64,000 nucleotides of DNA from NCBI GenBank assembly GCA_030141605.1, contig JAQGDQ010000067.1, positions 1 to 64,000 on the forward strand, written 5' to 3'. Within the stretch, counting starts at the first letter, position 1. Each line of letters starts with the position of its first letter. Origin of the DNA: Tubiluchus corallicola (Eukaryota > Animalia > Priapulida). A program made the translations under genes and the position numbers. The notes below the pieces were generated by a model. That model ran no database searches, was not told the DNA's origin, and saw nothing but the letters and a program-made list of their open reading frames with translations. Shown here piece after piece: positions 1 through 60,046 of this stretch.

Positions 1-1129
1 TGTTCTACAACACTGCCAAGCCAAACTGAACCGCTGCTGTTAACTCAGGAACCAGCTCTAAAATCCGAGATTGAAAACATACTAACCAAAGCCTTTAAAG
101 AGCTTATCTCCAAGTTCATATAGGCCCAGTATCGTTTAGCTTGTTTTTAGACTATACTCTGAACTTTAAAGCTAGTCTGCGTAAAACTGTTATAAAACTC
201 TTTTTTTACTATGCTATTATGATTTTAATGATGACACTGAATAACAGAAAATTTTTAGCACTGCTGCTAGTGAATTTTTACATAATATGGCAAAATAGGC
301 CAATCCTTCCTAACTCGTGTAAAGATTATAACGTAACAATTGTGTATACTAGTATTATAATAACAATTATCTCACCCACGTTATTACATAATAGGAAATA
401 TTTACTTCTTATAGTACTGTATTCTATACAAGCCCTTTTACTCACAGCCGATGTTAGTATCCTTATGATCGTTCTAAAATTAATTTACCGCGCATGCGTA
501 ACGTTTTACTGTGTAAGCCTGATACTATGCTGCTGTATTACTGCAAAAAACTGCAAGTTAAAGTTATTTTATTTGTGTTAATAGGTACATTTTGGAAACC
601 ATGCGAATTTACCTCTTGTATCATAGTTGATATTTCTAACATATCTTATCATAAAATTACTAAATTTATTTGTGATTATGGCAGCCTTTGTATATTTAAC
701 GCCAAACACCAAACAGTTAAGTTCTTTTATTGTAACTATGTTTACGTCTTAGTTAAACTACGTGCAATACTATCCATACTAAAACTTGAAAATGATCTAA
801 AGTAATTGTGGGTTGTTTCCATGTCTAGTGGTAATTTAAACAACTTTTTCATTGCTTTTCCTGTAAATAGCGATAGAATAAGACACTCTATGCAATTTAT
901 TTTAAAAAGATTTGTATCCATCTTAAAAGTTGTGTACCTCGGTGCTATAAGACAAATGCGTCATGTCAATCTAAAATACGTAGCACTAAAAAAATTGGAA
1001 AAATTACAGATTTCATCTAAATTTGAAAGCACTCTATACTCATGTTCTGAACTGGCTTACATTTTAACCATAATTCGTTTACTACTTATACTTGGTGGTA
1101 TCGAAACTAACCCTGGACCCATTTTGCCA

Positions 1130-1185
<56 letters not shown>

Positions 1186-4100
1186 TAATAATAACACCAA
1201 CAATAATAATACCAGTGATGAGCTAAAAAAATTCATGATTACTTATAAAAAGAACATCAAATTTCTAAATATAAATATTCAAAGTCTCGTCAAAAAACAC
1301 TGGCTGCTCAAAGATACAATTCACGCCACCGAAAATCTTATTGTAGGCATAACAGAAACTTGGCTACATAAACAAATACTTAGCAACACTATAGAATTAC
1401 CTAATCACACATTAATAAGAAGAGATATATGTAAAAATAAGAAAGGTGGAGGGGTTGCGATGTATATACCTTCACACCTGAGACCACAAGAAATGAAAGG
1501 CATCAGAACCGGTAAGATTGAATCTGTTTGGTGCAGCATTGAGAACTATGTAATAGGAAACATATATAGACCACCCAATCTCAAACACAAAACATTTTTC
1601 AAATACTTTAGTGAAGAACTAGAACGCAGTGTTTTCGAAAATAAAAAAGTTCTTATAATGGCCGATTTCAACCTTGATATTTTAGCTACAAACACACTGG
1701 CATACAAAACATACACAGAGCTCTTAAAACAATATAATGTCCACATACTTAACAACAATAAACCTACTCGAATTTCTAAAACATCAGCCACAGTAATCGA
1801 CCATTTCATTTCGAATAGTAACAATAATTTCGTAGCATATGATACTTTCCCGTGTGATTATTCAGATCATCATTTCACAATATTAGTAGATAAAATGACC
1901 CCACAGCATAACAATAACCAAAATTCAGGCTGGCATTTAATGAGAGACTACGCCCAATACAACAAACATTCATACTTAATCGACTTATCAAAAATGAACT
2001 GGACCTCCATATATATGACTGATAAAATAGATACACAAGTTAATATTCTGATTAATAATGTCGAATATTGCCTTAATGTACATGCACCATATAAAAACGT
2101 AAAACAAATCCCACAACAAAGCAAACTCAATAACGAAAGTACCTGGACAACACCTGAACTTGACAAACTAAGAATAGCGAAAAACAGAATGTATAATATA
2201 TGGGAAAAGAACAAAACTAAAAACAATCATAACAATTATAAAAAAAAAGAGAAATCAATTTAGTAATCTTACTAAATGCTTGAAAAATAAATATATACAA
2301 CAACAATGTAAAAACGCAACAAATACTAAAGAAAAATGGGAAATTAGTAACAATGTAATAAATAGTTGCCGTAACAAACTAACGCATATTGACGAAACTA
2401 AAACCAACAACACTGTTATTACAAAACCCAAAGATATTGCCAATGCGCTAAATGCAATATTCCTGAATCTTGGAAATTTTAAGGGAGAGGCTTCTCATAT
2501 TAGCAATAATATAATTAATAAATTAAAAAACAAATCGTCTAACACAGTATTCTCATTCAAAAGTGTCACAGTAGGAGAAATTAACGACATATTAAATAAC
2601 CTAAGTTCCAACAAAGGGAGTGGACCATCAGATATTTCTATCAAAATTCTAAAAGATAGTGCATCTGTAATAGCCCCAAAGATATATATGGCTTTAGCCA
2701 TATATGGCCATTAGTCATATAAGCATATGACTTACATTGCTAATCAGATAATTATGTGAGGCTAATTTCCAACGGTATGTAAAATGGCAAACGTGACTCC
2801 AATCCATAAAAAAGATCCAAAATGTGATCCCATGAATTATCGCCCAATTTCCGTAATCCATTGTTTCGGCAAAGTTTGGGAAAGGATTATTTATGATCAG
2901 ATAAATTCATATGTAAATAAACATGAACTTTTATCAAAACGTCAGTTTGGCTTCCGTAAACACCATTCAACCATTGACGCCCTAATACACACAACAGAAA
3001 ATTGGAGACATAGTTTAGACAACAAGCAATACATTTTAGCGGCATTTTTAGATTTAAGTAAAGCATTCGATAGCATTAATCACGAACTACTTTACGATAA
3101 TTTAAAACAAATCGGATTAGATTCGATATCGTTAAAAATGATACAAAAGAATCTCAAAGATAGACAACAACGAGTAAAGTTAGATACATCCAACTTTTCT
3201 GACTGGGCCACGTTAAACAGAGGTATACCACAAGGAACACTACTAGGTCCGTTATTATTTTGCCTATATATAAACAACATATCCAGTGTATTACAACACT
3301 CACAAATAACGCAATACGCTGATGACACTACAATCTACATAGCCCATGAAAATATCCAAACTGCAAAAAATTATTTAGAAGAAGATATAAAAAATATAAA
3401 TATGGCATTTAGTCATTACAAGCTAAAAATGAATAATGACAAAACAAAATTCATGATACTGTCACCTTCATTAAATACTAATGATGCATCATCAACCACT
3501 TTGACAATAGATAATGCTGTAATCAAACAAACTAATAATGTTAAATTCCTGGGCATCCAGGTAGACAATAATCTTTCATGGGATGAACACTTTAATAACA
3601 TATACACAAAAATGGCATATCTCCGACAAGTTAAAGGGCAACTAACAAAGGAAACTAAAACACTAATATATAAAACTTTAGTTCTACCACACTTCTTATA
3701 TGGATGTACGCTACTTCAAAAAACCAAAAGAGAAAATTACTTAAAATTAAATCTCCTTCAAAACTATGCGTTGAGATTGATAGCTGGGTCCTCATAAAAA
3801 CATAAGGCAGGTAGACAAAATTCAAAGCTTCAACAACTAACATGAGAAAAACTTTAAAATTCCCAATCATTGAAGCACACAAAGAATATTTTACTCTGCT
3901 TTTTATATTTAAATACATTAACAACATCAGCAAACCATTCCAGAATAACAGATTTACCTTTTTTTCCAAATGCTATCGTTAATTCCAGAACAAGCAATCT
4001 AAAACAAATTAGGACAAATACCCACTATGGAACGAACTCTGTAATCAAACAAGCAATTCTACTTTGGAATTCTACTCTACCATTACAGGTTAAACAAATC

Positions 4101-4416
4101 AAGTCCCCATCAGCATTTAAAACAAAATTAAAATCATTAATATTAACCATCACACCAGTACGACAACATACACACTAATTCAGAATTCATATATCCACGG
4201 CCATATTAATTAAATCATAGTTTTTTCATTTTTTTGTGCATAGTTGTAAATATGTTTGATTTCATTCGTCGTTACTTTCCATTATTGCACAGTAGTTTAG
4301 ATTGCACTGACGCATTTGCCTTCAGCAGTGTAAGTTTTTACTAACTAACACTGATTGATTATCTCTGTAAAGTTTTTATCAGTGATTATCAATGTATTTT
4401 AATGGCAAATAAAGAT

Positions 4417-4419
<3 letters not shown>
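1..4419 (+). mobile_element. L2/CR1-group LINE copy A (end of ORF1, spacer, disrupted ORF2 with APE endonuclease and RT, 3' end with AATAAA and TA tail); 5' part lies outside the window
   Basis: ORFs 806-2263 (GITETWL, GGGVAMY, IYRPP, DFN, SDH), 2280-2714, 2784-3797 (NYRPIS, LDLSKAFD, GIPQG, YADD), 3870-4178. Confidence 0.93.

Positions 4420-4472
<53 letters not shown>
4420..4472. repeat. (TA)n microsatellite at the tail of LINE copy A
   Basis: Read directly. Confidence 0.95.
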
Positions 4473-4474
<2 letters not shown>

Positions 4475-4700
4475 CACTATTTGACCTCACTGTAATAGTA
4501 AGTGCTCTATCACCAAATCTCTTGCAGCGAGTCCTAGAAATCATCGTGTTCACGTTGTTAATTATCTTAAAGAGTAAGTTGATATTACAAGTTCAAACAT
4601 GTCTGATAAGTAACTAGGTACATTATTTTTGATATGTTAAAGCGAACAATTTAAACTGAATTCTCTAAGTAGTCGGTAATACTTGGCTAATATTTGTTAG

Positions 4701-4821
4701 GCAACAACTGCAACTGGTAAGCTGGATCTATGGGAAGGACGAGACGAAATCATTCTTTCAGGTGATGGACCTTGCGCAAGTGATGACGAAGATGATTGTG
4801 AGTTTGACACATCCGGTTCAG
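4701..4821 (+). CDS. Nrxn: neurexin stalk/Cys-loop exon (ATTATGKLDLWEGRDEIILSGDGPCASDDEDDCEFDTSGSG), inverted relative to the rest of the gene
   Basis: tatttgttag acceptor, GTAAG donor; 121 nt, phase 0/1; starting phase matches the exon ending at 13720; D.I..S...C.SDDED..C motif of the neurexin juxtamembrane region. Confidence 0.85.
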
Positions 4822-5378
4822 GTAAGCCTTAATCGGCGTCTACCGGAATGCGTTAGTGCATATCAAGCTACCTACAAAATATTTAATAAGAATAGACTAG
4901 CTGAAGAAAAAATAAGGTAGTAATGCATGTTAGAAAAACAATATAAAGTGATTTTTAACGCATAACGCATTGCGACTGTCTGGTCAACACTACTTTACCG
5001 TGCAATGCCGTGTTAACAAAATTTCCACAATAAAGAAAAAGAAAAGATGTAGAAGGCAAGCCATTGTGACTCCTAAATGTTTTATTAGCTACTGTTACAT
5101 ACCTGTCACCAATAGCACGCTCATCATTTTACCCTTAAGAAATCTTAAGTTAGTAGCTGCAATAATTTATCTGCCTCTAATGCTAAATTTGTATTTTTAA
5201 TAATGATAAGTTTCGTGTACTCATTATTATTAAATGACTATAATTCTTCGTGATGTTAGTAGGTAAACAATGTGCCTTGCTTTCTTTTTCACAGCCTTTA
5301 TTGTTGATCTATTTCTCTGCTCTTATTGTTTTATACTAAAAAAGAAAAACTTGCAAGGACGACGTAGTTTCATCTAGT

Positions 5379-7402
5379 TGGCCCAGTCAGAAAAGTTGGA
5401 TGTATCTAACTTTACTCGTTGTTGTCTATCTTTGAGATTCTTTTGTATCATTTTTAACGATATCGAATCTAATCCGATTTGTTTTAAATTATCGTAAAGT
5501 AGTTCGTGATTAATGCTATCGAATGCTTTACTTAAATCTAAAAATGCCGCTAAAATGAATTGCTTGTTGTCTAAACTATGTCTCCAATTTTCTGTTGTGT
5601 GTATTAGGGCGTCAATGGTTGAATGGTGTTTACGGAAGCCAAACTGATGTTTTGATAAAAGTTCATGTTTATTTACATATGAATTTATCTGATCATAAAT
5701 AATCCTTTCCCAAACTTTGCCGAAACAATGGATTACGGAAATTGGGCGATAATTCATGGGATCACATTTTGGATCTTTTTTATGGATTGGAGTCACGTTT
5801 GCCATTTTACATACCGTTGGAAATTAGCCTCACATAATTATCTGATTAGCAATGTAAGTCATATGCTTATATGACTAATGGCCATATATGGCCAAAGCCA
5901 TATATATCTTTGGGGCTATTACAGATGCACTATCTTTTAGAATTTTGATAGAAATATCTGATGGTTCACTCCCTTTGTTGGAACTTAGGTTATTTAATAT
6001 GTCGTTAATTTCTCCTACTGTGACACTTTTGAATGAGAATACTGTGTTAGACGATTTGTTTTTTAATTTATTAATTATATTATTGCTAATATGAGAAGCC
6101 TCTCCCTTAAAATTTCCAAGATTCAGGAATATTGCATTTAGCGCATTGGCAATATCTTTGGGTTTTGTAATAACAGTGTTGTTGGTTTTAGTTTCGTCAA
6201 TATGCGTTAGTTTGTTACGGCAACTATTTATTACATTGTTACTAATTTCCCATTTTTCTTTAGTATTTGTTGCGTTTTTACATTGTTGTTGTATATATTT
6301 ATTTTTCAAGCATTTAGTAAGATTACTAAATTGATTTCTCTTTTTTTTTATAATTGTTATGATTGTTTTTAGTTTTGTTCTTTTCCCATATATTATACAT
6401 TCTGTTTTTCGCTATTCTTAGTTTGTCAAGTTCAGGTGTTGTCCAGGTACTTTCGTTATTGAGTTTGCTTTGTTGTGGGATTTGTTTTACGTTTTTATAT
6501 GGTGCATGTACATTAAGGCAATATTCGACATTATTAATCAGAATATTAACTTGTGTATCTATTTTATCAGTCATATATATGGAGGTCCAGTTCATTTTTG
6601 ATAAGTCGATTAAGTATGAATGTTTGTTGTATTGGGCGTAGTCTCTCATTAAATGCCAGCCTGAATTTTGGTTATTGTTATGCTGTGGGGTCATTTTATC
6701 TACTAATATTGTGAAATGATGATCTGAATAATCACACGGGAAAGTATCATATGCTACGAAATTATTGTTACTATTCGAAATGAAATGGTCGATTACTGTG
6801 GCTGATGTTTTAGAAATTCGAGTAGGTTTATTGTTGTTAAGTATGTGGACATTATCTTGTTTTAAGAGCTCTGTGTATGTTTTGTATGCCAGTGTGTTTG
6901 TAGCTAAAATATCAAGGTTGAAATCGGCCATTATAAGAACTTTTTTATTTTCGAAAACACTGCGTTCTAGTTCTTCACTAAAGTATTTGAAAAATGTTTT
7001 GTGTTTGAGATTGGGTGGTCTATATATGTTTCCTATTACATAGTTCTCAATGCTGCACCAAACAGATTCAATCTTACCGGTTCTGATGCCTTTCATTTCT
7101 TGTGGTCTCAGGTGTGAAGGTATATACATCGCAACCCCTCCACCTTTCTTATTTTTACATATATCTCTTCTTATTAATGTGTGATTAGGTAATTCTATAG
7201 TGTTGCTAAGTATTTGTTTATGTAGCCAAGTTTCTGTTATGCCTACAATAAGATTTTCGGTGGCGTGAATTGTATCTTTGAGCAGCCAGTGTTTTTTGAC
7301 GAGACTTTGAATATTTATATTTAGAAATTTGATGTTCTTTTTATAAGTAATCATGAATTTTTTAGCTCATCACTGGTATTATTATTGTTGGTGTTATTAT
7401 TA

Positions 7403-7497
<95 letters not shown>

Positions 7498-10200
7498 TGG
7501 CAAAATGGGTCCAGGGTTAGTTTCGATACCACCAAGTATAAGTAGTAAACGAATTATGGTTAAAATGTAAGCCAGTTCAGAACATGAGTATAGAGTGCTT
7601 TCAAATTTAGATGAAATCTGTAATTTTTCCAATTTTTTTAGTGCTACGTATTTTAGATTGACATGACGCATTTGTCTTATAGCACCGAGGTACACAACTT
7701 TTAAGATGGATACAAATCTTTTTAAAATAAATTGCATAGAGTGTCTTATTCTATCGCTATTTACAGGAAAAGCAATGAAAAAGTTGTTTAAATTACCTTT
7801 AGACATGACATTACAAATTACTTTAGATCATTTTCAGTTTTAGTATGGATAGTAATGCACGTAGTATAACTAAGACGTAAGCATAGTTACAATAAAAGAA
7901 CTTAACTGTTTGGTGTTTGGCGTTAAATATGCAAAGGCTGCCATAATCACAAATAAATTTAGTAATTTTATGATAAGATACGTTAGAAATATCAACTATG
8001 ATACAAGAAGTAAATTCGTATGGTTTCCAAAATGTGCCTATTAATACAAATAAAATAACTTTAACTTGCAGTTTTTTGCAGTAATACAGCAGCATAGAAT
8101 CAGGTTTACACAGTAAAACGTTACACATGCGCGGTAAATTAATTTTAGAACGATCATAAGGATACTAATATCAGCTGTGAGTAAAAGGGCTTGTATAGAA
8201 TACAATACTATAAGAAGTAAATATTTCCTATTATGTAATAACGTGGGTAAGATAATTGTTATTATAATACTAGTATACACAATTGTTACGTTATAATCTT
8301 TACACGAGTTAGGAAGGATTGGCCTATTTTGCCATTTTATGTAAAAATTCACTAGCAGCAGTGCTAAAAAATTTCTGTTATTCAGTGTCATCATTAAAAT
8401 CATAATAGCATAGTAAAAAAAGAGTTTTATAACAGGTTTACGCAGACTAGGTTTAAAGTTCAGAGTATTGTCTAAAAACAAGCTAAACGATACTAGGCCT
8501 GAACTTGGAGATAAGCTCTTTAAAGGCTTTGGTTAGTATGTTTTCAATCTCGGATTTTAGAGCTGGTTCCTGAGTTAACAGCAGCGGTTCAGTTTGGCTT
8601 GGCAGTGTTGTAGAACATTTATTAGGATAATGAGCTTTAGCCGATTCTGCATAGTACAAACTGCTTCGTTCAGATGGCTCTCTCCGGTTCGAAACGGAGT
8701 AGGTTCGCTGTGGGTCGTTAATTACTGGCGTTGGGAGAAGACCAGGTTTCTTAACTGTGTCTGAATAGCTGGTATTGTGAGATGAACCAATACAAAAACT
8801 AAACGAGTTATTTAGGCGCGAAATTGCAGAATTGTGTTGGTATGGGTTTGTATGGGACATTGGTTTGCGTCTTGTTTTCACGTACCAACGCTTAGGATCA
8901 TTGTGTAAACATAAGTTCAGTTGTTCTGCTAATTTTGATACACCAGTACGACTTAAATGTAAACCGTCTCTTGCCATTAACCCTTCAGCTAAAAAATGAC
9001 TTTGAATGTTGCACAATAAATAGCCCTCTTTGTTAGCTAAATAGACTAGATCATCATTGTAAGAGCGTATAAGCTCGTTTGTCAGAAAGATATTACATGG
9101 TTTTGCATTAAATGCTTACTTTTTGAAGTCAGCGGTATATTACAAATAAAAATGTTTGCAGCTTTAAACTCACTTGCAATGATGTCTTTTTCGCACAGTT
9201 GTCTGCAATTGTAATGATGTCTCTAACTGCTGATTCTTTGTCGATTTGCTGTCCAACCTCGTCGCATTTTTGCGCTAGCCGTCTTATGTCATTTACACCA
9301 CATGCGATGATCACATTTTCAAGTTTCATAGCTGGATAATGGTTTAACACTTTTGTGCTTAACTCTTCTAACGTTAAGCCTCTGTATGAGTGTACCTGGA
9401 CGTTTTGCCCGATGTCCTTTGGATTTAAGTATACGGTCCGTGAGTCTCCCAGGACTAGTGTTTGAGTGGTTGCATGTATGGTTTTATGATTTTCCCTTCT
9501 TTGATTCACAGTTATTGTGGCATTGCAAGTTTCCTTTTCCTGCAAGGTTTCGCCTTGCGATGGAAGGTCGTTATTGCCGTGTTTCGATGAGGAGGTGTCT
9601 CCATTCCCAAGCAAAGTTTGACTTGCTTCATCTGTGTGACTGGGATCTTTGGAGGAACTATCACTTGTTTGGTTGCTTACATTTCGCTTTCTTTTTTGTA
9701 GTTCAGAGAGTTCCGCTGATAATTTATGAACCTTTTCGATGAGAGTTGACTGCTCTTTGTAGCTGGCAACTAGTTTTGATTCCAAGCATTGAATTGTCTT
9801 TTTACTCTCTTTTTCGTCATTTTTGGTTTTTATTTGCAAGGCAATTAGCATTTGTTTACATCGTTCGCCCTCTGGATCACCAACAAGTACGAAGTCGGGA
9901 AACAATTTCTGCCGCCTCGTGTCCATCATTTCCCATATTCGTCGTTTACCTACGTTTTTTGAAGCACCTTTCACACGTTGCAGGAAATAGCTGATTTTTA
10001 TTTACTGGATTTTTTCACTTTTGCAAAGCGTGCAACTTTTCCTTGCCATTCATGTATGTCTTTTAACATATATACTTTGTTCGGCGTAGTATCTTTTAAC
10101 TATAAGTAAATTTGTACAACCTTGGCCTCACGGCCTAATCACAATCTATTCAACTCAAGCTGGTATAATTAGCAACCGGAGCACGACACAAACGATGTGC
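5379..10200 (-). mobile_element. L2/CR1-group LINE copy B with SGNH-esterase ORF1; ORF2 truncated at its 3' end after FSDWA
   Basis: Reverse complement of 1-3210 over 5379-8617; ORF1 pieces 9129-9974 and 8483-9016 carry GDS, G.ND and DGLHL; 5' boundary approximate. Confidence 0.92.
8483..9974 (-). pseudogene. LINE ORF1: coiled coil plus SGNH/GDSL esterase domain, frameshifted
   Basis: LVLGDSR...SYRGLT...ACGVND...RDGLHLS blocks; coiled-coil-like IQCLESKL...LSAELSELQ. Confidence 0.85.
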
Positions 10201-10968: not shown

Positions 10969-10997
10969 AATAATAATAATGATGATGATGATGATGA

Positions 10998-13719: not shown

Positions 13720-14006
13720 CGATTGTTGCCTCGAACTAACCACGTACTCTGGTGATACGCTGAATTTGGTGCCAACAGGTGCGTTATTAATCTGTCTTGC
13801 GTCCCCAATAATCACTACTCTTGAATCGTTTTCCTTTGCTAAGTCAAAGATATGAATGTTGTTAAAAACCAAGCCTGCCATTACACCTTTAAATGGGCGA
13901 TCTATTGCACCAATGCGATCTTTGCTTTCCTTGCCTCCAATCTGGAGCTTATGCGGCGAATTAAAAACACCCAATTGCTGATCCAGGCAATTGACATTGT
14001 AACATG
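13720..14006 (-). CDS. Nrxn: alpha-neurexin exon, LNS6 end (PCYNVNCLDQQLGVFNSPHKLQIGG...PFKGVMAGLVFN...IGDARQI...SSRQQS)
   Basis: ttttctttttcag acceptor, GTAAGT donor; 287 nt, phase 1/0; QL..FNS and PF.G...GL..N motifs. Confidence 0.92.
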
Positions 14007-14499: not shown

Positions 14500-14671
14500 G
14501 TTCTGGATTTTTTGTCTGAATAGGATGGTCATCGACTCTAAGAGTAGCATTAAGTCCTGAACGGCTAAACCGGACTGTATGATACATTCCATCATTGACC
14601 TTCTCTGAGAGATCCTGAATGGGATGGTCCGTTGTGCCCATGTTGTAAACGAGAAATAGGTTCCCTTTCAC
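14500..14671 (-). CDS. Nrxn: alpha-neurexin exon, LNS6 (VKGNLFLVYNMGTTDHPIQDLSEKVNDGMYHTVRFSRSGLNATLRVDDHPIQTKNPE)
   Basis: gacag acceptor, GTAAGA donor; 172 nt, phase 0/1; NDG.YH.VRF.RSG.NATL motif. Confidence 0.95.
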
Positions 14672-16374
14672 CTGTCAGCAATAACAACTCGTTAAGCGGT
14701 AAGCCGTGAAGAGAAAAAGGCGCCTTGTGAAAAAGGAATGTATGCTAACCAATAGTCGTTGTCACATAGACAATCCATTTGCCATTCTCCGCCATACCGT
14801 AAGCCCGCAGTTCCTCACAAGCCGTTTTGCGCACTTTATAAAGCGCTTCATTGCGAAATGATTTTGGCCATTAATTTCACTTAATGGCCATCGGTCATCG
14901 CTAAAGCAGTGGTTTCTATAGTTAACATTTCGTTTATATCATAAGAACTCATAACACAATTGTCCCATGAACGTTGATGGAAAACAATGATTTTTCATAT
15001 CCTTCCTCATTTTGAAGTACGGCAAAAATACTTATTTTAACACCTATAATACTGCTGAAGTATTTATGATAATTAAATATGGATTAAAAACTTAGCTAAA
15101 GGCGGACGAGCCCAACTACTGATGTTATCATAAATGAACATAATTTTCAACAACAGAAACATGCGTGTTACACGTGTTTGAGAAAGCAAAAAATGAAGTA
15201 CAGTGTTACTGTACAAGATACATTGTGTTATATTAAAACTCGGTAAGTTTTAAAGTAAAAATTCAAATTTCAAATATACCACTGTGCATGAGTTCGCAAA
15301 CGTGTGCGTTACGTCATAAACGAACACTTCTGAACTGAGAAGTACAGCACCTTTTTGTGCAACGCGTTTCCGAAATGCAGGCGCTAGTGCTGATCTAACT
15401 AACGAATGGCGAAATGCATGTAACCGCGAAGAACTAGCCACGCATTTGCGAAATTGGGTTTGTGTGGTAATAATTTTTGACACGTAAGTCATTCTTGAAA
15501 AAATAGTATGTTCCTTTTCCGTACTTTAAAGAGTAAATCTTTTGACATATAGTTCAAGATCGGGTCTGGTTTTCCTTTAATAAGCAACTTTTTGAACACG
15601 ATATATTTTTACGGATTTTGGATTGCGGCTTGGTTCACATTTTGGTTGGACAGCCAAAGGATAGGACCATGCGTTAAGGTATAACATTCCATTAGTGTGT
15701 TGGAACTATCTGTAAAAAGTTCAAAATAGAGAAATAGACTGGTGAGGTGCTGTCGCCCTTGCACATTTTTAAAATGAGTATATCGGTCACCAAAATAATA
15801 AAACAACAATGACGACAATAACAACAACACCAGCAACAGTAGCAACAACAACAAGTCCAAATGCTCCACGAAAACTCTTATCACTGCGCACAACTGCCAC
15901 ACTCACCACGCTTGCCAAACCTCCAAAGCCACCAAATCTGCCATACCGCCAAACCATCAAAGCTCTTTCTTCTTCTTTTTTCCTTTTCTCTCTTTCTTTT
16001 TCTAGCTGAAATCAAATTTATTCCCCCTTTCCCCTTTCTTTCATACTTTTCTTTTTTGTTTTTCCTCTTTCTCTCTTTCTTTTTTGCTTCCTGTCTTCTA
16101 ATACTTTATGAATAATTGCATACTAAATTTTTTTAAAAATTCTGGCGAACATTTCAATGAATCCTGAGCTGACTGTTTTCAATTTTACTGGTCAGCAAAT
16201 GGTAGAACTAACCCATCTCAGTTGTAATCAACATATTAGCTTGTGTAAACGATTACACACTTTGTTGTATTTAAATAACAATAAAGACTCATCAGGCAAA
16301 TAGGCCTTCCATTCTATATGGTCACAATCCTGCGCATAAAATAGACAAGGCTGTTTCCAGATTTAAATGCCACG

Positions 16375-18500
<2,126 letters not shown>

Positions 18501-19456
18501 GTGGCTAACACTCAAGATAGAGACGTCCTTGCGTTACTAGGTCTAAAAGCTGGTCCAAATAAGGATCACGAGGTTCTAATTTTTTTCTGGACCTCACCTG
18601 ATTTTCTTTCAGCTTTACTCAGGACAAAAGCACCACCTGGCAGCATGGAGACACCTGGCGGTAGTCCAATCAATTCGCACCAAATTGTGTGCTACGCAGC
18701 TGCCACTTGTAAACGGATTCCGCGCTGCGGCCGTTTCACTAGACCCATGTTAGTACCATACTTAAAACTTATGACAACAAAATTAACATTTTCAACTTTG
18801 GGAAACAGTAACTCTTGGAAAAAGACATTTTGAATCACGTTCATTTACACAGCGTTTAAAGGAAAACATGTCGATACCTGATATATAAGTATGGTACCGA
18901 CATGTGTCCAATGTGTCCAGAAAAACTGTGTCGGTGGCGGCTATGTGACACTTTAATGATAGGGAATTGATCGAACAATCACCACTCCTACGGTATCTTG
19001 GTAGGAGGCGGTTCTTGTAGGAGTAATTGCTTCTCAAAAATAGAGTATTTTGACGATTTTCGAGTCATAACTCAGGCGGCTCAAAAGATCACCCGCAATT
19101 AAAAGCAAAAGTGGCCCTATAGCTAGCTATAGGCACCCCAAATTTGGTGAACTACCTCTGTCTAGTTTCTGAGTTATTCCAAAAAGATTCGTATCTCGGA
19201 AACTAAACATCGCAGAACGGAAATAAAAGCAGATTCTGAATATCAAATTTTCAACCGGACATCCTATTTATTGCCATTTTCTGGCTAAACGAAACTCGAC
19301 GCGCGATTTTGACACAGAGCATCAGATTCTACATTTCACTGCGAATCCAATGCTATATGGCGTGCCTCCAGAGGATTTATATCTTCAGTTCACAAAGCAT
19401 TCAGTTGAAAGCATGTCGGTACCTTATTGGTAATAACGACTTACGATAAACTGTCG

Positions 19457-19587
19457 AAAAGATAGACTGGCGAAAAAGTAGAGTGGCGAAAAGCTAGACT
19501 GGCGAGCTATAGACCAAACACCCAGGTAGAACTACAGACCAAAGACCCAGGAGGAACTACAGACTAAAGACCCAGGTGCAACTACAG
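19457..19587. repeat. Two adjacent minisatellites: about 16 bp x3 (aaaa..tagactggcg) and 23 bp x3 (ctacagaccaaagacccagg...aa)
   Basis: Read directly. Confidence 0.85.
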
Positions 19588-19674
19588 AAAAACAAAAAAC
19601 AGATAGATGACCCAAGGTCTTTACTTTCATACCATAGTTCTAACTTCCTACCAAATTTCACATAGTTCACATAC

Positions 19675-19853
19675 CAGTTCCAGCTCCATGTAGTCGTTAC
19701 TGGTGGCACTGTCTATTCTCATGATTACAGCATTGCTTTGAACAGTTTTAAAGCGTAGCGCCAACTCATCGAAGTTCCTGTTTGGATACTGGCCTCCTTG
19801 ATAAGTAAACATAATAAGTCCAGATTGAGGACCAAACTTGTACATCGTTGAGT
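19675..19853 (-). CDS. Nrxn: alpha-neurexin exon, LNS6 start (DSTMYKFGPQSGLIMFTY...DELALRFKTVQSNAVIMRIDSATSNDYMELEL)
   Basis: ctttcag acceptor, GTATGT donor; 179 nt, phase 1/0. Confidence 0.94.
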
Positions 19854-21844
19854 CTGAAAGTAATGAGAGTACTTTAGTTATATTTTTAGATTATTAAATA
19901 ATCGGTAGTTAGCTTAAATTAGTGCAGGCTTACATTGCTCAAAAGTATTAAAAAATGCTCACAGAGCGAAATGGGAAAATATAGTTCCAGGTTCTTTTCA
20001 ATGAGAGTGCACTGTGCAGGAACAGATAAGTTTGCATCTGGAGATCACGTACAAAACACGGGTACGTGAAATTTGGCTTTTTAATAAATCACGGTTTTCC
20101 TAATTAACACATATTCCTAACTCTCACAATGTTTTTTAAGAATCATTATTTCGCTAAATTAAAAATCTACATTTTATTAACATATGGCAGCATTTTATTT
20201 CAAAAATATCTAGTGTATTCACAAAAAAAATCTATCCACACCAAAGTCAGTACATCTAGTACAGCAGTTCAACTAATATTGTAATATAATACAATATTAT
20301 TCAGCGGTTGGTGTTTGGCTTAGAATTAGAAAAAAAAACAGAGAGAATGTGTTGCTTCATTGTTTATCCTAGCTGCCGGCTTGCAAAAGACCAGATCAAT
20401 TAACGAAATTGATGTATGATTATTAAAATCAAGGCTACGTTGAAAATGTCTTTGACGTGGTGAAAAACTGAGATTTTCCAAACAATGTTCACAGAATTAG
20501 GCTTAAAAACATGTCAGTCTTTTATTTGAAAATTCTATAATTTTGAATTGATTTTATTGAAATCGTATTGCTTGATAACCTAGAAACTGCACTTCATAAC
20601 CTAGAAACTGCACTTCAGAATCAAAGTGGCAGCTTACAACTTTGATAAAATTAATACTTAGTGCGCAACTACCCTCACAACGCTTTGTCCCTTATCGTGG
20701 TCCGTTAAATTGTTTTACAATAAAAAGAAAAATTGTCATAATTGTAGTAAGGTCAAAGAATGCCTTCTTTTCAGCTGTGAAATGAAGTTTCAAATCGTTT
20801 ATTATGTTTTATTTGACTAACAAATAATATTGCAATGCATTATGCCGCAAAATTGTAAATGGAGGCACTCTCTAAACATTTTTATATTATAATTTTTTCA
20901 GTCATCAGTCATCATCACACGTCAACCTCATAAAACTTAAATACTTGTGGAAAACAATTTCGAAAAAAGTAAAAGCTCTGATGCAGAGTAACGGAAGAAC
21001 GAAATGACACCCGCAGCCCATGACAAATTGACCAGAGATCAGGGACCGCCACACTGCTGCCCTTCTTCCACCCAGGAGAACCCATCCTATAAGTTTCGTT
21101 AAGCCTTTTTAAGTCTTGTTTAGTGGTACTTCCACATTTGCAATGTTGCAATGAGGTGGGACTACAAAATATAATGTTATATCATATATCTTTTGGCTAT
21201 CTAACTACTGAATTGTATTTCGATGTTGTTTCTAAATTCTTTGTTTTAGATGCCTTGACAATGAACAGTTTTGTTCGAAACCGGTCGGCAATAAATTTCA
21301 TTTTGATGTAGTCACGTCTATTAGCCAAATATGGATAATTCAGATATAAAAATTTGAAAAATTATAAAATATTTGAGAAATTAATGAATATAAAATATTT
21401 TTACGTAATCCTATTACTCGTCCGTTGTTTATAAAAATAAATAAATAAATAAGTTTGATGTTATGGTACCCTAAATTCCTAAATACTCACACCATTATTA
21501 ACGTTAGTCAGGTTTTGATATACTACTGTCAGTGATTAATATTCGTATGCGTACTTGTTTTCGCATGAGTGACTGCATATGGTCAGTGAGCATCTCACCA
21601 AAATAATTTGTCACCAACGACGTCTTACTAGTTTAGTAACCTGCCCACACGTTTATACTTGTGATATGATATGTCCATATATTATTTCCATATGTCCAAA
21701 ATGTGATATGTCCATACATTATTTGATATGCGTATTTACTCTCGAACCTAAGTTTATGTGTGCACATGTGTAATGTGAACATAAACTCTGAATTCATAAT
21801 AATAATCAATACATAGTCATATGTCAATAAATAATAATCACTAC

Positions 21845-21845
<1 letters not shown>

Positions 21846-21891
<46 letters not shown>
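21846..21891. repeat. (AAT)n microsatellite
   Basis: Read directly. Confidence 0.95.
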
Positions 21892-22308
21892 CAATCATGA
21901 ATGCACAATACTAATCAAGACATGGTCAATAAATCGTCATGAATACATATCAATCATTAATACATAACTAGCAAAGGCCCCGCAAAAAATTTTGCATATA
22001 AATACACTTATAATCAAGAATACGCGAACATCCCACATTGTCCTCATTTATAACGCAAAGCAAGTAGCAGCTTTTACTGAATTAAAGTTAGAAGGTTATA
22101 AGCAGAGTATAATGGATGACGTCAGAATAATTGCTTTGCATCAGCAGTTTTCCAAGCGAAAATTGTCAAAAATGGATCATCTAAGTAACTCGTCGCCACT
22201 CCTCTTGGTGGATGTGTCCTAAAATATAAGCCCACATCATCGTGTAGGCCCGTACTTCCTCTTCCTAAAGAACTATATATCTTCTTCCAAGAGTCCCACT
22301 GGATGCCG

Positions 22309-25055
22309 CTAGAACTGAACCGAGCCCAAGAAAGACTTCAAGCTTGAGACGTCTGTAGGAGGTGGCATCTTCATGACTGCCTCGACCTTGGATCCTTTTG
22401 CAACTCCTTCGGCCGATAAGGTGTGTCCAAGATATTCAATACTTGGTTGTGCGAACAAGCACTTTTTATGACGACATCTGAGTCCTTTGTCGTTCAGACG
22501 AGTGAGCAAGCGTCTCAGGTTGCTCAGGTGATCATTTGTGTCTTACCCGCGGACGAGCATATCGTCTTGGAAGGCGGTGACTCCAGGCTGATCACTGGTC
22601 AGGTTCTCCATGATCTCCTGAAAGTAACCAGGTGCTGACTTGATTCCGAAAGGAAGTCGTTGCTGCAGGAGTACACCACAGTGGGTACTGAGAGCTAGCC
22701 TGCATTGACTCTCAGGTGCCAGCTTAATCTGGTTATAAGCATCAGCAAGGTCGATCTTCATGTGGCCGTATCTGCCTTCCAGCTTCTGCATCAGTTCCTC
22801 TGGGAGTGGCATCGGATCGTAGTCCTCTAGCTGATCGTTGATGCCGACTGAGTAGTCACCACAGATCCGCAATTTGGGCTTCTGAGTGCCCAGAGTGTAA
22901 GCTTTACGAATCGGTACCACTGGCGTTCCCGTATTCGTTGACCTGGACTGGCTTCCAGACACCCTTGGCGATGCCTTCTTCGTAACCTTTGGCCAGGTCA
23001 TCTCGAAGAGCGAATGGAACCAGTCGTGCCTTATGAAAAACTGGCTTCGCGTCAGACTTGAACTTCACTTCCAGTTCGAAGTTCTTAAGACACCCCAATT
23101 CTTCTTTGAAGAGATCTGGGAACTCGTCACACAGGTTGTGGCACTCTCGTTGCAAGTTAGCATAAGACGTGAAGGAGGTTTCTGGATGTGACGTTTTTAC
23201 ACCCTTGCTCTTGTCTTGACTCTCTATGCTTCTCAGTCCTAGAGCATTGTCCACAGAAATTCCCAGCTTCTGGATAGCATTTCGTCCAAGCAGGTTTAGG
23301 TCAGGGATCTTGGTGACGATGTAAGGAATTGAGCTTTGTTTACAGTCTTTGGATCCTTGGTCTGGCCCATGAAAGTTCCCAGCACTGGCAGGTGGTGCTT
23401 GCTGGCAGACTCGTAGCGATGTCTGTCGTCATCCAGCTTTGGCTTACCTAGTTGCTTCCAGACCGGCACTGAAACGAAATTTCCCGAGGTTGCAGTGTCA
23501 AGTTCCATCTTGAACTGTCAGTCTTGGATGTTGAGTTCGACATCCAAACAAGGAGAATCTTTGGGAACTTCACCGAGGATCGCCTTGACAAGCTCACCTT
23601 TCCTGATTCTCTTCACGGACTTTCCAGATTTTTGGTCCCATTGCTGTCGTTGCTTCTTCATGCAAACAGCCTCCAAATGTCCTTTCTTGTCACAGAAATG
23701 GCACTTGGCATCTTTGTAGGGGCAGTCAGTCACTTTGTGGGCCTTTCCACAATGGTAGCACTTTGTATCCATATCTGTGGAATTTGACTGCTGATGGTTC
23801 TTTCGTTGACCTTTGTTTTGGTTCAGCTTGACTTTGTGGACGGGCCTGGTCTTGGAACCATAGACAGCCTTTACCGCGTCTTCAGTCTCGGTAGCGATTT
23901 GGATAGCACGGGCGAAAGTCAGATCTTCATCCTTGATTTTGAAAATAGCCTTCAAAACAGCTTCGTTGTTGATAGAGCATATGAATCTCTGCCTCAGAAC
24001 TTCATCTTGTGGGTCTTGGATTGAAGAAAAATCACAGGTAGCAGCGTCTTGGCATATGTGGGCTGCTAACTCCTGGGGAGTTTCGCCTGGATTCCGTTGC
24101 ATGTCACTCCAGAACTTGAAACGTTCTCGCACAATGAAGAGTTTCGGGTCAAACTGTTCCTTCATAAAGTAGTTAATTTCGTCAATTGTCAGTTCGTTGA
24201 TATTCTTGGATGGAGACTGTTGAGTCGCTAGATTTGCCAGTTGTTCGTAGATGCCGCAGTCTGATTTGTTAGGAAAACTTGAGCCTTGCATTGGTCAGGC
24301 ACTGCATTGGCTGCCATGAAGGAACAAAAACTTGACCAGTAGTCAGGCCACTGTTCAGAAGTTGGATCGAAAGCAGCAAATGGTGAAATGGTAGCTGTAA
24401 GCGCTGATGCAGGTGGAAGGTGGGTGCTTGAGCTGTAATTCTCTTCAGGAGTTCGAGCCTGAAGCAGCCTCCTCATAGCATTCATATCTTCTTTGTGTTG
24501 CTGCGCCTGCTGATCCATATCTTCTTTGTGTTGCTGCGCTTGCCGATCCATCTGTTCCCTCTAGATTTGAATCTGCTGCGCCTGCTGATCCATCTGTTGG
24601 CAGAGGAGCTTGATAAGTTCGCCCATCTGCTTTGCCATCATTGCTTGAAAAAACAACTGTCCACTGAGTTACCAAGGGAATATTTGTTGTGTTTTGTTTC
24701 TCTCGGAAGGCTCGTAGAGAGAACCAGAAAACACTTCGTCAAATTAAACTAGTTTAATAAGCGAGAATTCTACAACACAAAAGTATGAAGGAACGCGAAA
24801 TGATTACACTAAACGTAAAAATCTGAAAAACGTTTGAGTGTATCTGAAAATACAGGTATACAAGAGAGTGTGTGAGTGTGCGTCCGTGTGAATCTGCGTG
24901 CCTGTCTCAGCGGCCTGCTTCGCCTTATATAGCGTGCCCGAGAAGCTTCTAGAAGTTTTTGTTCCAGAACATTCTACACGGTAAGACGATTATTCTAACT
25001 GAACATTCTACAATGTTCTATGTAATTCTAATAGATGCCAGCGATCTCCACAACA
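22309..25055 (-). mobile_element. Mag-like Ty3/Gypsy LTR retrotransposon: 5' LTR, gag, PR, RT; 3'-truncated and frameshifted
   Basis: gag with two Cys/His knuckles (CYHCGKAHKVTDC, CHFCDKKGHLEAVC); protease MELDTA; RT LRICGDY, IDLADAYNQ, LPFGIKSAP, FQDD, IEYLGH. Confidence 0.9.
24685..25055 (-). repeat. Putative 5' LTR (371 bp) of the Mag-like element
   Basis: Terminal inverted 7-mers TGTTGTG...CACAACA; TATATAAG near 24925 and ATTAAA near 24755 on minus strand; TGG-initiated PBS-like sequence near 24673. Confidence 0.7.
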
Positions 25056-25079
25056 CCAATAAATCGTCAAGAAAACAAT

Positions 25080-25312
25080 GATATCTGTGTCTCCTATCCT
25101 CTGCAACTAAATTTGTAGCCAAAGTATGGGTTACCTTAAAAAATACTTTTGGAGAGTTGGTAGCTCTAAAAGTTCATGCATTAAATTTGTAGACTGCTGT
25201 AAATGTTGTGTAATCTCAGGAATTTTCTTCCATTGGAATTTGATGATAAGCACTTTGAGGTCCAAAATAGTAACTCCTTTTACTACTTCAAAATACTATC
25301 AATCCGAGGTGG
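25080..25312 (-). mobile_element. Short Gypsy RT fragment, same family as 37620-39570
   Basis: Reverse complement aligns with 37620-37721 joined to 38516-38670 (PPRIDSIL...SAYHQIPMEEN...DYTTF). Confidence 0.75.
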
Positions 25313-26721
25313 TTGCGTAAGGTCCTTGAATTCAAATATGGAAAGTCCACACACATACGGTAAGATACGTACCCTTTCCAAACAAGTAAGACTGCACTGC
25401 AAGAAGGAGCATCTGATGACTTATTATTTCTGCTTCTAAAGCGATTCGATGTCTGCTTCTAAAGCGACATAGGAATGCAGATTAAACCTTAATCATGTTT
25501 AATAAAACTGCAGAAATAATTTGATTTTCATTTTGCTCATACATCAGTTTTACTTGGAAGAATAATTTTCTTCTGTGCCTTGATGAAATAAGTCAGATGA
25601 CTATGTAGGAAGACAAACGAATAATGCCAGAGTCAAGCAACAATACTGAATTAGCTATATCCAAAATTGCTCCAGATTTATGAAAAAATGGATTTCCCAA
25701 TATAAGAAGTGTCGCAATTTGAAAAAGTAAGTGAAACATATTTTTACCAATAGTTATTGATAATACGACTTGTTGCCGTCTATGTTTGCCAGTTGCACCC
25801 CCTGTTTTAAGTTTTTTGGTAATTCATCCTTCTACGACATTCTTTCTTGGAAGTTCTGATCGCCAAACTCTCATATTTGAACTTTGCAGAAAGGTGTATG
25901 TTCACTAACTAAGGTGACAACTAACTTTGCTCTCTCATTGTTCTTCTTGGTTACTTCTGCATTGTAGTCCATAGAGTGCTTTGATGCCTGCCTCACATTG
26001 TTCTTAAAACAACTATCGCTTTTCGACATCTTATTTTCGTCAGTGCTCTTATGTTACTCTGTTTTTAAATCCATTTTCCTTTGACGGTATCTCTTTGTAT
26101 CTCTTACAAAATTTCTTTTCTGTATCTATATTGGGTAAGGGTTAACAACAGATTCTATCTTGCAAACTATAAACATTTTCTAAACTTTCTTCATTCTGTT
26201 ATTCTTATGCCAATTAATGAATAACTTCGTCAAAAATAATGCTACTCTTGACTGAAGGTGGCAGCACAAGACTGGAATACAAAATCAATACAGCAATATT
26301 ATCAATCGTTAGGTAAACGATTCGTGATACAGTTTAGATTAATACTTAAAGTGAAAAATAATTAGTAGCAGTAATCTGCTAGATGGGGGACCATCACAGA
26401 GCCTTCCCCTAAAGAATATTGAATATTTCAAGATCATGATTACGAAACTTAATATTTTTCACTGCTAAGCTAAGATAACATCATACATATACCATGGCAA
26501 ACATGAACAGAAGTAACGACTTTGTAGCTCACTGAGTTATTACATATTTTTCAACTTAGACAAAATAAGGACAAAAAGAAGTAAATTGATCATTACATCA
26601 TACACCTCAAATATGTCATCAAAACAAATATATCATATATAGCATCTAGACATGCAAACTTATTTAAGCATTGAGAAAGTAATGCAACTTGTTGGGCATT
26701 TCATACTCTGACGCTTTATAT

Positions 26722-28410
26722 TTATTTCCGACTTAAAACATCAGTAACAAGGTTTTGTGCACCAGTAATATGCTCAATTGTACAGCAGTATTCTGAAAGA
26801 ATGAGTGCCCAGTGACACAAACGTCTGTTATTCTTACGCATTTTTTGAGCGTAAACAAACTTCTTTGATCAGTGCGCAATGTAAACAGGCGGCCTTCTAA
26901 ATAGTAATTTAACTTCTGCACGCAAAATACAACACTCAGAAGTTCACGTTCAACTACAGAATATCTGACTTCGGTGGGTGTAAGCCTACGACTGACATAT
27001 GTGATGGGCACTTCTCCCAAGCCATCCATACGATCTTGTGTGAGCACAGCACCAATGTCCACAAAGCTGGCATCTGTAGTTAGGATAAATGGTTTCGAAT
27101 AATCAGGGGAATGTAGAACACTGTCAGAAGTATCCTGAAGGGTAAGAAAGCTCTTCTCACAAGCTTCTGACCAAGGTACTTGGGTGGGAGCATATTTTTC
27201 TGTTAAAGAATACAGAGGTGCAGCGACAGTGCTGAAGTTTTCAATAAAACGTCTGTAGAAGCCCACCATTCCTAGGAATCTAAGTACTTGAGTTTTTGTT
27301 TGTGGCAGCGGAAAATCACGTATTTGTTGTAGCTTCTTCTGTTGAGGTCGTAGGCGGTTCTTGCCTATAATGTATCCAAGAAAATTTGCCTCCCCCAGAG
27401 CAGTACTTGAGTGGCTTAACAGTCAAGCCTGCCTTACGAATGCAAGTAAGCATGTCATCTACATGTTCCAGGTGATGTGACCAATCTCGCGACTTGATTA
27501 ACACATCATCGATGTAGCCTCGTGAAGAATCTCTTGCGTTTTCTAAAACGCGGTCCATAAGTGACTGTGCAGTACTGGCAGCATTCTGTAAGCCAAAAGG
27601 CATGACGATGAACTCGAACTTACCAATATCAGTTACAAAAGCTGATATGGGTTGCGATTCAGGGGCAAGCTCGATTTGCCAGTATGCCTTGAACAAATCA
27701 AGTGTCGATATCCAAGCGACGTTGGGAAGATCATCGATTATATTGTCCGGGCGAGGCATTGGATATGGGTTGAAAATTATATGAGCATTTAACTGTCGGT
27801 AGTCAATAGTTGGTCGCCATTCGCCATGTGGTTTTGGCATGAGGTGTAGAAGTGAGGCACACTCGGACTCTGATCGTCGTATTACCCCTAAATTTAGCAT
27901 CTCTTGGAGCTCGCGCCAAACTATCTCTTTGCGGGATTGCGGCAGTCAGTAGGGATATAGTTTGACTGGTGTGGCATCCTTAAGGTGAATGTGATGACGA
28001 ACTACAGTAGTGCGACCTGGTAAATCCGTAAACATTTCCGGATACTTGTTAAAAATAGCACGAAGTTCTGTGCATTGTTGCTCTGATAGATCGTCTGGTA
28101 AAGTGACATCATTTACTGACTATGTGGTAATGGCTGTTGGCAAAAAGGCATAATCTGGAAGACCCCCAGGTTCCACTATTCCTTTGCCTAGGTTTGTTAT
28201 TGCCAAATCATTCATGTCATCTTCCTCAACATCTTCATCAACACAATATGCCATAACTTCACTCAAGTTTGTTTCATCATTGCCCAAGCTCATTGCTAAA
28301 ACGATCAGGGACTCTTCTCTGTCCACATATTGCTTAAGCTTATTGATGTGAACAATTCTAGTGTCCTTTCGTCTACCCTTCTTGCCAAAACAAACATTAT
28401 AAACAAACAA
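26722..28410 (-). mobile_element. Gmr1-like Gypsy pol remnant (IN C-terminus, then RT, then RH)
   Basis: RIVHINKLKQY lies upstream of RT (IDYRQLN, LDLFKAYWQI, MPFGLQNA, YIDD) and RH (TTDAS, ERELL), ending NLVTDVLSRK*. Confidence 0.8.
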
Positions 28411-30299
28411 ACATTGGTTGTAATGAGCTTGAAACGCATAGTGTTCACGTAATTATTAATGAAAAAAGTATCAATTGATACACGATTTTCCTGACGTTTT
28501 CTTAACTTATTTATAAGTACTTTTATATTTTTTATTGACTGTACATATTTTTACTGTAAACTGATATTTTTGCACAGTGTTTGCCGTATAATGCTTGAAA
28601 TCATGTGCGAGAAAATTGATATAATTTATTCAGGGGTTGAGATTTGATATGCTCTTCCAAGTTATGTAAAAGAAGGACCATGATACAGTGCCACTATAAT
28701 TAGACTAACAATACCATCAATAATAATATATTGTGTGTTCTTCATGCTTGTCTCTTACAAATGAACAGGAACGTGTTACACTTGGCGTGCGATAAAAGCA
28801 CAGTCCTACTGGGTTCTGTCTGGATCGATGGAGTACAGTAGCTGCTAACAGCACAGTGAATACTGAGCGGAATGGTGCGATGTTAAAAGGTAATGTTAAA
28901 ATGCATGGGCGAGACGGTGCTAACTAACAGAAAATATTATAACAGAATAGGTTAACGTAACTAGAGACTTATAATTCACTTCAGATATGCCTATACTTTT
29001 ATAATTCACTTCAGATATGCCTATACTTTTAATACTACGTTTTGCATTTTAATGTCTAATGAATATAGCCTGTTAATTAACTAAAATCAACAAGAGGTGA
29101 TTGTTTATTTACATTATTTGTTTTCAATACTTACCGAGGCTTATTAGTTCTAGGTACTGCGGAACTGCAAGCATTACATACATGTGGAGATAACGGCAAG
29201 AAAAACTCCATGTGGCACCGTATAACTTATTTGAAACCATGCCGAAAATCAAGAGCTACTTCATGACTTCTTCACATTACATATTATTTCAGTGATAATC
29301 TTGAATTAATCATACACTCAAGTAAATTTTTCTAATCAGTATACTACACCTGTACAAAAGATACAATGCCTGGATGATCAGTACTGAATGGCAATTTTTC
29401 ACAACCTAAAGGGAAGCCCTGTTGTGGCTGCTAGAGGCACATCAGCGACAGGCTTCGTCCAATCATAAATGACAACGCAGGTTGCCTGTTCTTAATATTA
29501 CAGCACAACCAGGCAAGCTGAGACAGCAGCAATTGACAGCAACGATGAAGGGGAAAAATTCGAATTGATCTGCTGCTGTTTTTGCAAGAGGGTCTACTGT
29601 AGATAAGTAGTAATCAATAAACTAAGATGGACTAAACGTTTCTTTTAGATTTAAAGCCACTTACATTTCGTAGGCATTGACCCACGATTTGAACCCTGCG
29701 TGGTCCGTCTACTGCTGCAAGAGCACGAATGGGATTGTATACGTGCGAGAATTTATAAAATTAAGCGAAACTGGTGAACGTCTTTGACTGTGTCAAAAAG
29801 TGCGTTAAAATTCTATTCCTATGTCAGGAAACGTGTTAAGTGACGGTTTTTTCGCAATAACATTATAACGTGCACTTAGTAGTGTTGTGCTTGACATTAG
29901 TAGTTTAAATGAAATCAAAATTTGTCACGTTTTCACCTGTGACTCGAGGTCAAGGCTCTGAAGGTCATAACATTAACCTTCACTAAATTGGTCATACTTG
30001 ATTACCTAGGAATACCGTTTCGTCTTTAACGAAATCAAAATCTATAGCTTTTTGGTCCATGATTTTGGGTCAAGGGATTAGACGAACATGAATTATTTAG
30101 TATGGCTCATCGAAGCTTTTTTATTAGATGTGTATAAACTGCTAAAATGGGAACTCGTTATTTTTGATTCAATTCGTCTCCTCAATGCTTTTCTTTGGAT
30201 AATATACCAGAGCTGTGAATCGAATGAATCGATCTCAAAATGAATTTCATGATCAGCGCCGCCTAGTATAGAGATGTTTGCACAGCCGCCATTACGGTG

Positions 30300-31540: not shown

Positions 31541-31660
31541 CCATTTCACATCTTGTTCCTATAAACGAAGTGTATGTACAGTCACACGTGTAATTAGTCC
31601 AATGCTGAACACATTCACCGTGGTTCATGCAAGAACTCTCATCACATTCTACATCTGCGC
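31541..31660 (-). CDS. Nrxn: alpha-neurexin exon, EGF3 (GADVECDESSCMNHGECVQHWTNYTCDCTYTSFIGTRCEM)
   Basis: tttacag acceptor, GTGAGA donor; 120 nt, phase 1/1; six-Cys EGF with CDC..TSF.G..C. Confidence 0.95.

Positions 31661-36835: not shown

Positions 36836-37044
<209 letters not shown>

Positions 37045-42280: not shown

Positions 42281-42420
<140 letters not shown>

Positions 42421-44777: not shown

Positions 44778-44951
<174 letters not shown>

Positions 44952-59908: not shown

Positions 59909-60046
<138 letters not shown>

Follow-up and report, generated by a model that had tools for sequence, protein, structure and literature searches.

In vertebrate neurexins, the heparan-sulfate site is a serine placed ahead of an acidic Cys-loop, according to the available text of PMC8024894. 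No publication on an invertible neurexin exon came up in a literature search, from which absence from print does not follow. The closest described systems are fold-back inverted duplications, artefacts of long-read sequencing and inversions such as HsInv0102. Human fold-back duplications, in the accessible part of the report, have spacers of 766-70,466 bp (median 3,428) and 2-8 bp of microhomology (PMC3907307), and those of yeast are described, in the accessible part of PMC10622511, as resolved by recombination with another copy of a repeat. In the excerpts available of such reports, the known cases affect megabases or chromosome arms and bring a gain of copy number together with terminal loss. 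About 0.55-0.6% of ONT genomic reads are fold-backs, one figured example showing ~2 kb between the segments, and in unamplified HiFi data fold-backs are virtually absent, as stated in the portion available of PMC12870357. Amplified HiFi libraries contain inverted chimeras that misassemble, in the available text of bioRxiv 10.64898/2026.06.11.730069.

The window, i.e. the whole stretch of 64,000 nucleotides analyzed here, contains part of a neurexin gene. Searches by tblastn with oyster and crab neurexins located twelve neurexin exons between 60345 and 13720, all read from the minus strand, the largest of which matched neurexin-1-alpha with E 1.5e-86. The preliminary description of this DNA, which had twelve minus-strand exons ending at 13720 in phase 0, was borne out. 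Eleven of these exons (14522..60345, boundaries approximate), supported by tblastn and by Laminin G and EGF matches, extend from the end of LNS2 to LNS6. The twelfth (13720..13983, start approximate) encodes the end of LNS6 and has its donor in phase 0, and reading through it leads to a stop two codons on. The LNS-EGF-LNS order of alpha-neurexins was found from the end of LNS2 to LNS6, with EGF2 and EGF3. A first protein search returned laminin alone. The tails of 19 homologues gave no tblastn match in the window at E 0.01 for the transmembrane and cytoplasmic exons, and the transmembrane exon and the PDZ-binding tail are expected beyond it. The gene resembles alpha-neurexins of the Nrx-1 type, as presented in the available part of PMC8024894, in its LNS/EGF order and in an acidic Cys-loop with an SG just upstream, after LNS6. 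It differs in that the window is without the transmembrane and cytoplasmic exons, and heparan-sulfate glycosylation is here putative.

The Cys-loop belongs to an exon of 121 nt on the plus strand (4701..4821, phase 0/1), the neurexin stalk exon, which carries the SG serine. Its AG and GT are intact and its frame is open. Aligned to residues 948-974 of the crab neurexin (the Cys-loop), it scored 65, the best of 500 shuffles reaching 59, and this is the only occurrence of the Cys-loop motif in the six frames of the window. The best match to it lies just downstream of LNS6 in 19 of the 29 homologues with an LNS6 end. Taken alone, the exon had no neurexin match in PDB and no Pfam family; its identity follows from the crab Cys-loop alignment and from the placement after LNS6 in homologues. 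The exon is coding and frame-shifting, and its orientation is opposite to that of the twelve other neurexin exons. We conclude that it is a genuine neurexin exon lying backwards in this sequence, and its earlier assignment as a plus-strand Cys-loop exon, made from splice sites and open frame, agrees with the homologue alignments. Also, the loss of the membrane anchor predicted for the orientation shown holds as a prediction.

Self-comparison of the window gave a single long inverted repeat, 1-3210 against 8617-5379, 97.5% identical over 3249 columns. The inverted arms reported before (1-3210 and 5379-8617) were thus recovered, and their presentation as 3.2 kb copies was not: the window begins inside the left arm, copy B extends to about 10200, and the identity is uneven. 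The element is a non-LTR retrotransposon, with an ORF2 containing an APE-type endonuclease and a reverse transcriptase, a simple-repeat tail and many copies, putatively of the CR1/L2 type. RVT_1 was matched with E 3.6e-39 over 2769-3794, and Exo_endo_phos, in the inner part of copy A, with E 2e-4, below the cut-off. The depth of the LINE is 10 to over 100 times that of single copy, and its copies are decayed, with stops and frameshifts. Copy B (5379..10200, minus strand) comprises the 5' UTR, ORF1 (10001-9132) and a broken ORF2 cut at the join, and is ~3% off the family consensus; its 5' end, at about 10200, was set by a drop of depth and by a unique contig at 10193-10346. The 3' part of the LINE (reverse transcriptase end and 3' UTR, 3211..4472, plus strand), with a TA tail at 4420-4472, occurs once. 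It had been proposed that copy B is without its 3' end and that a flip of the spacer would supply it. The 3' part and the TA tail do lie in the spacer, but one copy stays cut in either orientation. No target-site duplication was seen by eye, and of 347 loose ends, the 24 listed included no empty-site allele of the LINE. A further candidate, twin priming with 3' transduction, was rejected, as it inverts part of one new insertion whereas the element here is dead, and it cannot yield two 5'-part copies around host exon DNA.

The two arms do not diverge evenly, as 27 substitutions fall in positions 1-830 of copy A against 5 in 831-3210 (Fisher p 5e-12). The inner arms (830-3210 in copy A) are 99.8% identical and are separated by 5 substitutions, 1 base and 13 AAT units (27 units in one arm and 40 in the other). 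The 5 substitutions and 13 AAT units fit two alleles. With respect to the LINE family, 40 of the 42 variants listed are common to inner A and B, i.e. 37 of 39 listed LINE variants and 3 of 3 more up to position 7807 of B, the listings showing 40 of 69 rows (one intronic) and 40 of 108 rows. A 45-bp insertion is also common to inner A and B, and the family contigs skip it. Thus, the shared variants and this insertion identify the inner arms as one dead insertion seen twice: the inner part of copy A (830..3210, plus strand) is copy B's insertion, from the second haplotype or as a duplicate. The outer part (1..755, plus strand, from the end of ORF1 to the start of ORF2, cut by the window edge) is near the family consensus and unlike copy B. 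It carries the family letter at 8 of the 10 listed sites where B differs from the family, plus the 4-base insertion of the family, and according to counts per contig nearly all A-B differences there are B's own. Between them lies a cluster of changes (756..829, plus strand) with 7 A-versus-B substitutions and 3 small insertions, and depending on the alignment at least 6 of the 7 substitutions are in neither B nor a family contig. A family contig over 7645-7880 of B differs from it at only 4 sites, 3 of which are common to A. An outer part resembling the family, joined to an inner part sharing the variants of B, makes copy A a hybrid, with the B lineage inside and a younger copy or the consensus outside.

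The spacer between the arms (3211-5378, 2.17 kb) is unique and single-copy, with an arm on either side. Its last part is the first 561 bases of the intron that follows the Cys-loop exon (4822..5382, plus strand), an intron that raw-data contigs extend by 642 bases or more of other DNA. The join itself (5379..5382, no strand) is a 4-bp microhomology, TGGC, common to the intron and to the reversed LINE; at least 4 bp would be expected there by chance with a probability of about 0.024. The join lies within the first 8% of the window and base 1 falls within the left arm, which is how a fold-back at a contig end would look. In the window, the same LINE insertion appears on both sides of the single-copy 2.17-kb spacer, with the two copies head to head, and the layout is a fold-back anatomy: a segment, a single-copy spacer, a microhomology, the inverted segment and an exit into another repeat copy. 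The 2.17-kb single-copy spacer and the 4-bp inverted microhomology at its end are shared with fold-back inverted duplications as these are described in the accessible text of PMC3907307 and PMC10622511. Another likeness, to the duplications of PMC10622511 in the part available, is that the far end of the arm enters another copy of a dispersed repeat. In the deep run, unlike in known fold-back duplications, the flank has no gain, and a loss of the continuation is not clear.

A search of raw-data contigs with the large neurexin exon covered six runs, four of which had the exon (X1-X4), X5 and X6 being nearly without its words. X1, X2 and X4 are one sample, probably the source of the assembly, and X3 is another sample. 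No RNA run was among those listed, which has no bearing on expression. Contigs were compared over 4452-7360. The X1 contig (1576 bases) matched 4483-5382 without difference and went on with 642 other letters, and the X2 contig (1582 bases, depth 174) likewise reached 5382 from the intron before 642 other letters. The X3 contig (773 bases) matched 4940-5382, then had 330 other letters. Hence, in all 3 runs with a listed contig at 5382, of 4 examined, the intron is left for non-LINE DNA. The start of the X3 continuation gave 0 matches in the window at 3 mismatches. X3 is without cover at 4452-4936 and X4 without a listed piece at 5382, and such holes prove nothing. At 5379 the family contigs, like copy A, proceed to the 3' part of the LINE. 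The probable source sample therefore has the normal allele, in which the LINE 5' part is followed by its 3' part, the tail, the exon, the intron and the continuation, and the second sample too has the continuation of the intron.

These contigs bear directly on the invertible cassette proposed in the preliminary description. With such a cassette, LINE sequence should always follow the intron end at 5378, and the three informative runs continue instead into unique DNA that the window lacks; nor would flipping the spacer restore the normal allele, in which the intron passes 5382 into other DNA. The passage of the intron into other DNA past 5382 in X1, X2 and X3 excludes an invertible cassette that is fixed, and leaves at most an allele that is rare or heterozygous. 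Two features of a cassette are lacking, namely inverted arms in both orientations (on the common allele) and arms that pre-existed as separate repeats. The locus shares with HsInv0102, in RHOH, a reversed internal exon and, in the assembly, inverted homologous arms (bioRxiv 10.1101/501981, available text). As described in that text, inversions of this type keep the same flanks in both orientations, whereas the common allele here is without a second arm at 5382; also, in contrast with the exon described there, the exon here is coding and frame-shifting.

None of the 32 listed contig pieces bridged the join of the window (1601 pieces lie outside the listing), no listed piece spans an arm, and such contigs show the presence of a join and not its absence. 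De Bruijn simplification may prune a short path from unique DNA into a high-copy repeat. Pruning of paths into a repeat of ~100-fold depth being possible, a heterozygous join may be hidden from the contigs. X2 has an 8-base insertion at 4842 that is missing from X1 and from the window, which means that two spacer alleles exist in the sample. Among the listed deletion rows, 10 of 11 are found only in X1 or X4, all in homopolymer runs of 3-9 bases; errors of this kind suggest noisy long reads in X1 and X4, beside a deep short-read run.

Depth was compared between the spacer and its flank. In X2, the contig with spacer and continuation has a depth of 173.9 and the flank contig (10504-10970) 178.9, a ratio of 0.97, where 0.79 is expected if one haplotype is without the continuation and 1.29 if there is a third copy of the spacer. 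The 22 comparison contigs in X2, which were hand-picked, have a median depth of 174, and 2 of them are at 145 or less; contig depth is not equal to copy number, and arm depth is swamped by the LINE family. The ratio of 0.97 speaks weakly against a haplotype without the continuation. Spacer depth is about half that of the flank in X1 (8.25 against 15.7) and in X4 (3.5-4.6 against 8.1-9.9). For 8 other contigs common to X1 and X2, the depth ratio between these runs is 11 to 35, and the spacer (21) falls inside this scatter. A long real duplication of the upstream gene was considered as well, and is disfavoured by the flank depth of 178.9 in X2, close to the median of 174.

Together, these data make it probable that the flip of the Cys-loop exon is a fold-back misjoin of the assembly across two haplotypes and does not belong to the DNA of the animal; otherwise it would be at most a rare broken neurexin copy on one chromosome. 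An assembly error had been raised before as a serious explanation, in the form of a flip between near-identical arms. Assembly error is indeed the likelier class, but a simple arm flip does not account for the data, as the anomaly is the join at 5379-5382 and the inner arms are one insertion. We propose that a long read, folded back or chimeric, reversed its direction at 5379-5382, perhaps near the end of a contig, after which the contig retraced the other haplotype. Past about position 800, it would have drifted into another family copy or the family consensus. The true gene would be normal, its part beyond 5382, up to the transmembrane exon, lying on another contig. Such a walk along the other haplotype would give the 0.2% difference and the unlike AAT lengths of the inner arms. 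The inner arms being not identical, one recently copied molecule is insufficient and two haplotypes must be invoked; an amplification fold-back of one molecule was thus rejected as the whole story, given the 5 substitutions and the 13 AAT units. The locus resembles long-read fold-backs and inverted chimeras, as reported in the available parts of PMC12870357 and bioRxiv 10.64898/2026.06.11.730069, in the strand turn with retrace and in the ~2 kb between segments, and also in that other data from this sample contain the normal continuation. It differs from these artefacts in that its arms are apart by 0.2% and by AAT length, so that they are not one molecule, and in being seen from contigs only. 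The misjoin reading also needs a second event for the hybrid copy A, and a microhomology of 4 bp is more in keeping with template switching by an enzyme than with a read folding back at random. The near-absence of fold-backs from unamplified HiFi data (PMC12870357) likewise speaks against it.

A real heterozygous allele of some kind, by inversion or by template switching, is taken jointly a possible but less likely origin of the join. One such allele would arise by fold-back or MMBIR and be a neurexin null on one chromosome. A younger LINE would join copy B by homology near position 800, copying would pass through the exon up to 5382, and it would switch back at the microhomology. The product would directly have the orientation of the window, with an inverted exon, a duplication of 2.4 kb of LINE and no continuation. 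This single event would cover the hybrid copy A, the transition cluster, the microhomology and the orientation, and it agrees in spacer size and microhomology with human fold-back duplications (PMC3907307, in the text available) and, in its end by recombination with another repeat copy, with those of yeast (PMC10622511, likewise in part). The half depth in X1 and X4 also favours it, and might be that of a real palindrome depleted from long-read libraries. We nevertheless regard it as unlikely, since X2 gave 173.9 where 141.7 was expected, a value of 145 or less being seen in only 2 of 22 comparison depths, and the 5 substitutions and 13 AAT units would need copying from the homologue or an age that is improbable for a null. 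A heterozygous balanced inversion of the 2.17-kb spacer at the inverted microhomology, with a U-turn of the assembler onto the normal haplotype, would make the palindrome false and the inverted exon real on one chromosome. It would fit all depths, including the 1:1 depth in X2, as well as the microhomology and the allele-like difference of the inner arms, and a human inversion of an internal exon exists, HsInv0102 in RHOH, in the available part of bioRxiv 10.1101/501981. Against this, the join is in none of the pieces listed (the reciprocal join, of the reversed LINE 3' part to the continuation, lies outside both stretches compared), an allele inverting an exon of a synaptic gene would be a priori rarer than a misjoin, and the hybrid copy A still requires a second event; we consider it quite unlikely.

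A real fold-back palindrome on one allele, whose 2.2-kb core toggles through the 2.4-kb arms in the germline or in somatic cells, appears very improbable; it narrows the DNA switch of the preliminary description to a single allele. Just as improbable is its functional version, in which neurons would turn the Cys-loop exon on or off, and the membrane anchor along with it, by rearranging their DNA. Near-identity over 2.4 kb around a 2.2-kb spacer would be a workable substrate for non-allelic recombination, as in human recurrent inversions, and the greater identity beside the spacer could reflect gene conversion. However, toggling requires a real join and a transmembrane exon surviving to the left of the window, the normal allele without cassette is present in both samples, and there is no recombinase or specific site, the arms being decayed LINE with stops and frameshifts. 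Least credible of all would be that two LINEs inserted independently in opposite directions and became fixed, and that the spacer was turned over in the animal or by the assembly. The resemblance of outer copy A to a different family member is what would be expected of such insertions, but 40 of the 42 variants listed are the same in both inner arms, which also have the 45-bp insertion that family contigs skip, the 3' truncation of one copy persists whichever way the spacer lies, and in the three informative runs the intron goes into other DNA.

If the misjoin reading is true, the neurexin gene model of this assembly is interrupted towards the 3' end, and the locus is a warning that an inverted exon between near-identical inverted repeats needs a check in raw data first. 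If the join is real, the animal would be heterozygous for a natural neurexin null that arose when template switching took place in a dead LINE, an event of a known kind. Only toggling would surprise, since a synaptic adhesion gene would then be switched in its DNA with no recombinase involved. In arms of this sort, private variants common to both of them betray a fold-back.

Next to the neurexin Cys-loop exon (4701-4821, plus strand), a contig assembled from X2, a deep sequencing run, carried an 8-base insertion at 4842, and X1, another run of the same sample, and the window were both without it. This site lies 21 bases 3' of the donor of the exon, and the difference between X2 and X1 shows two alleles within one sample.

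Both LINE copies bordering the spacer carried a 45-bp insertion (5866-5911 and 2684-2721), which consisted of short imperfect duplications containing in-frame stops and was skipped by the raw-data contigs of the LINE family. Over the LINE ORF1 region (8500-10000), X2 depth reached approximately 11-13 times single-copy, whereas in X3, a run of another sample, depth at 8500-9250 was only about 2-3 times single-copy. LINE copy number may thus differ between the two samples, as judged from depth, which is a weak measure of copy number, and such a difference would hint at a recently active family. The 5' flank of the LINE (10300-10970) was a patchwork of another dispersed repeat, where raw-data contigs showed many loose ends and skips. 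Also, about 60 bases were seen by eye to be similar between the intron following the Cys-loop exon (5020-5080, plus strand) and the intron preceding the LINE (11130-11190, minus strand), probably representing a small dispersed repeat.

The neurexin introns also contained broken remnants of LTR retrotransposons, on the minus strand at 22100-24600 and 26700-28500 (with an RVT_1 match at 27319-27945, E = 2.3e-25) and on the plus strand at 38900-39600 and 47300-48620 (with a weak integrase zinc-binding match at 48272-48616). Fragments at 42700-43750 (plus strand), which gave no match in a Pfam search, resemble a decayed DNA transposase. Self-comparison of the window revealed an old, short intronic inverted repeat pair (25057-25229 and 38516-38696, 77%) and a self-complementary intronic stretch (59635-59859, 74%). 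Finally, the neurexin exon at 33816-34577 (minus strand) was unusually large, its approximately 760 bases covering the end of the laminin-G-type domain LNS4 and the whole of LNS5.
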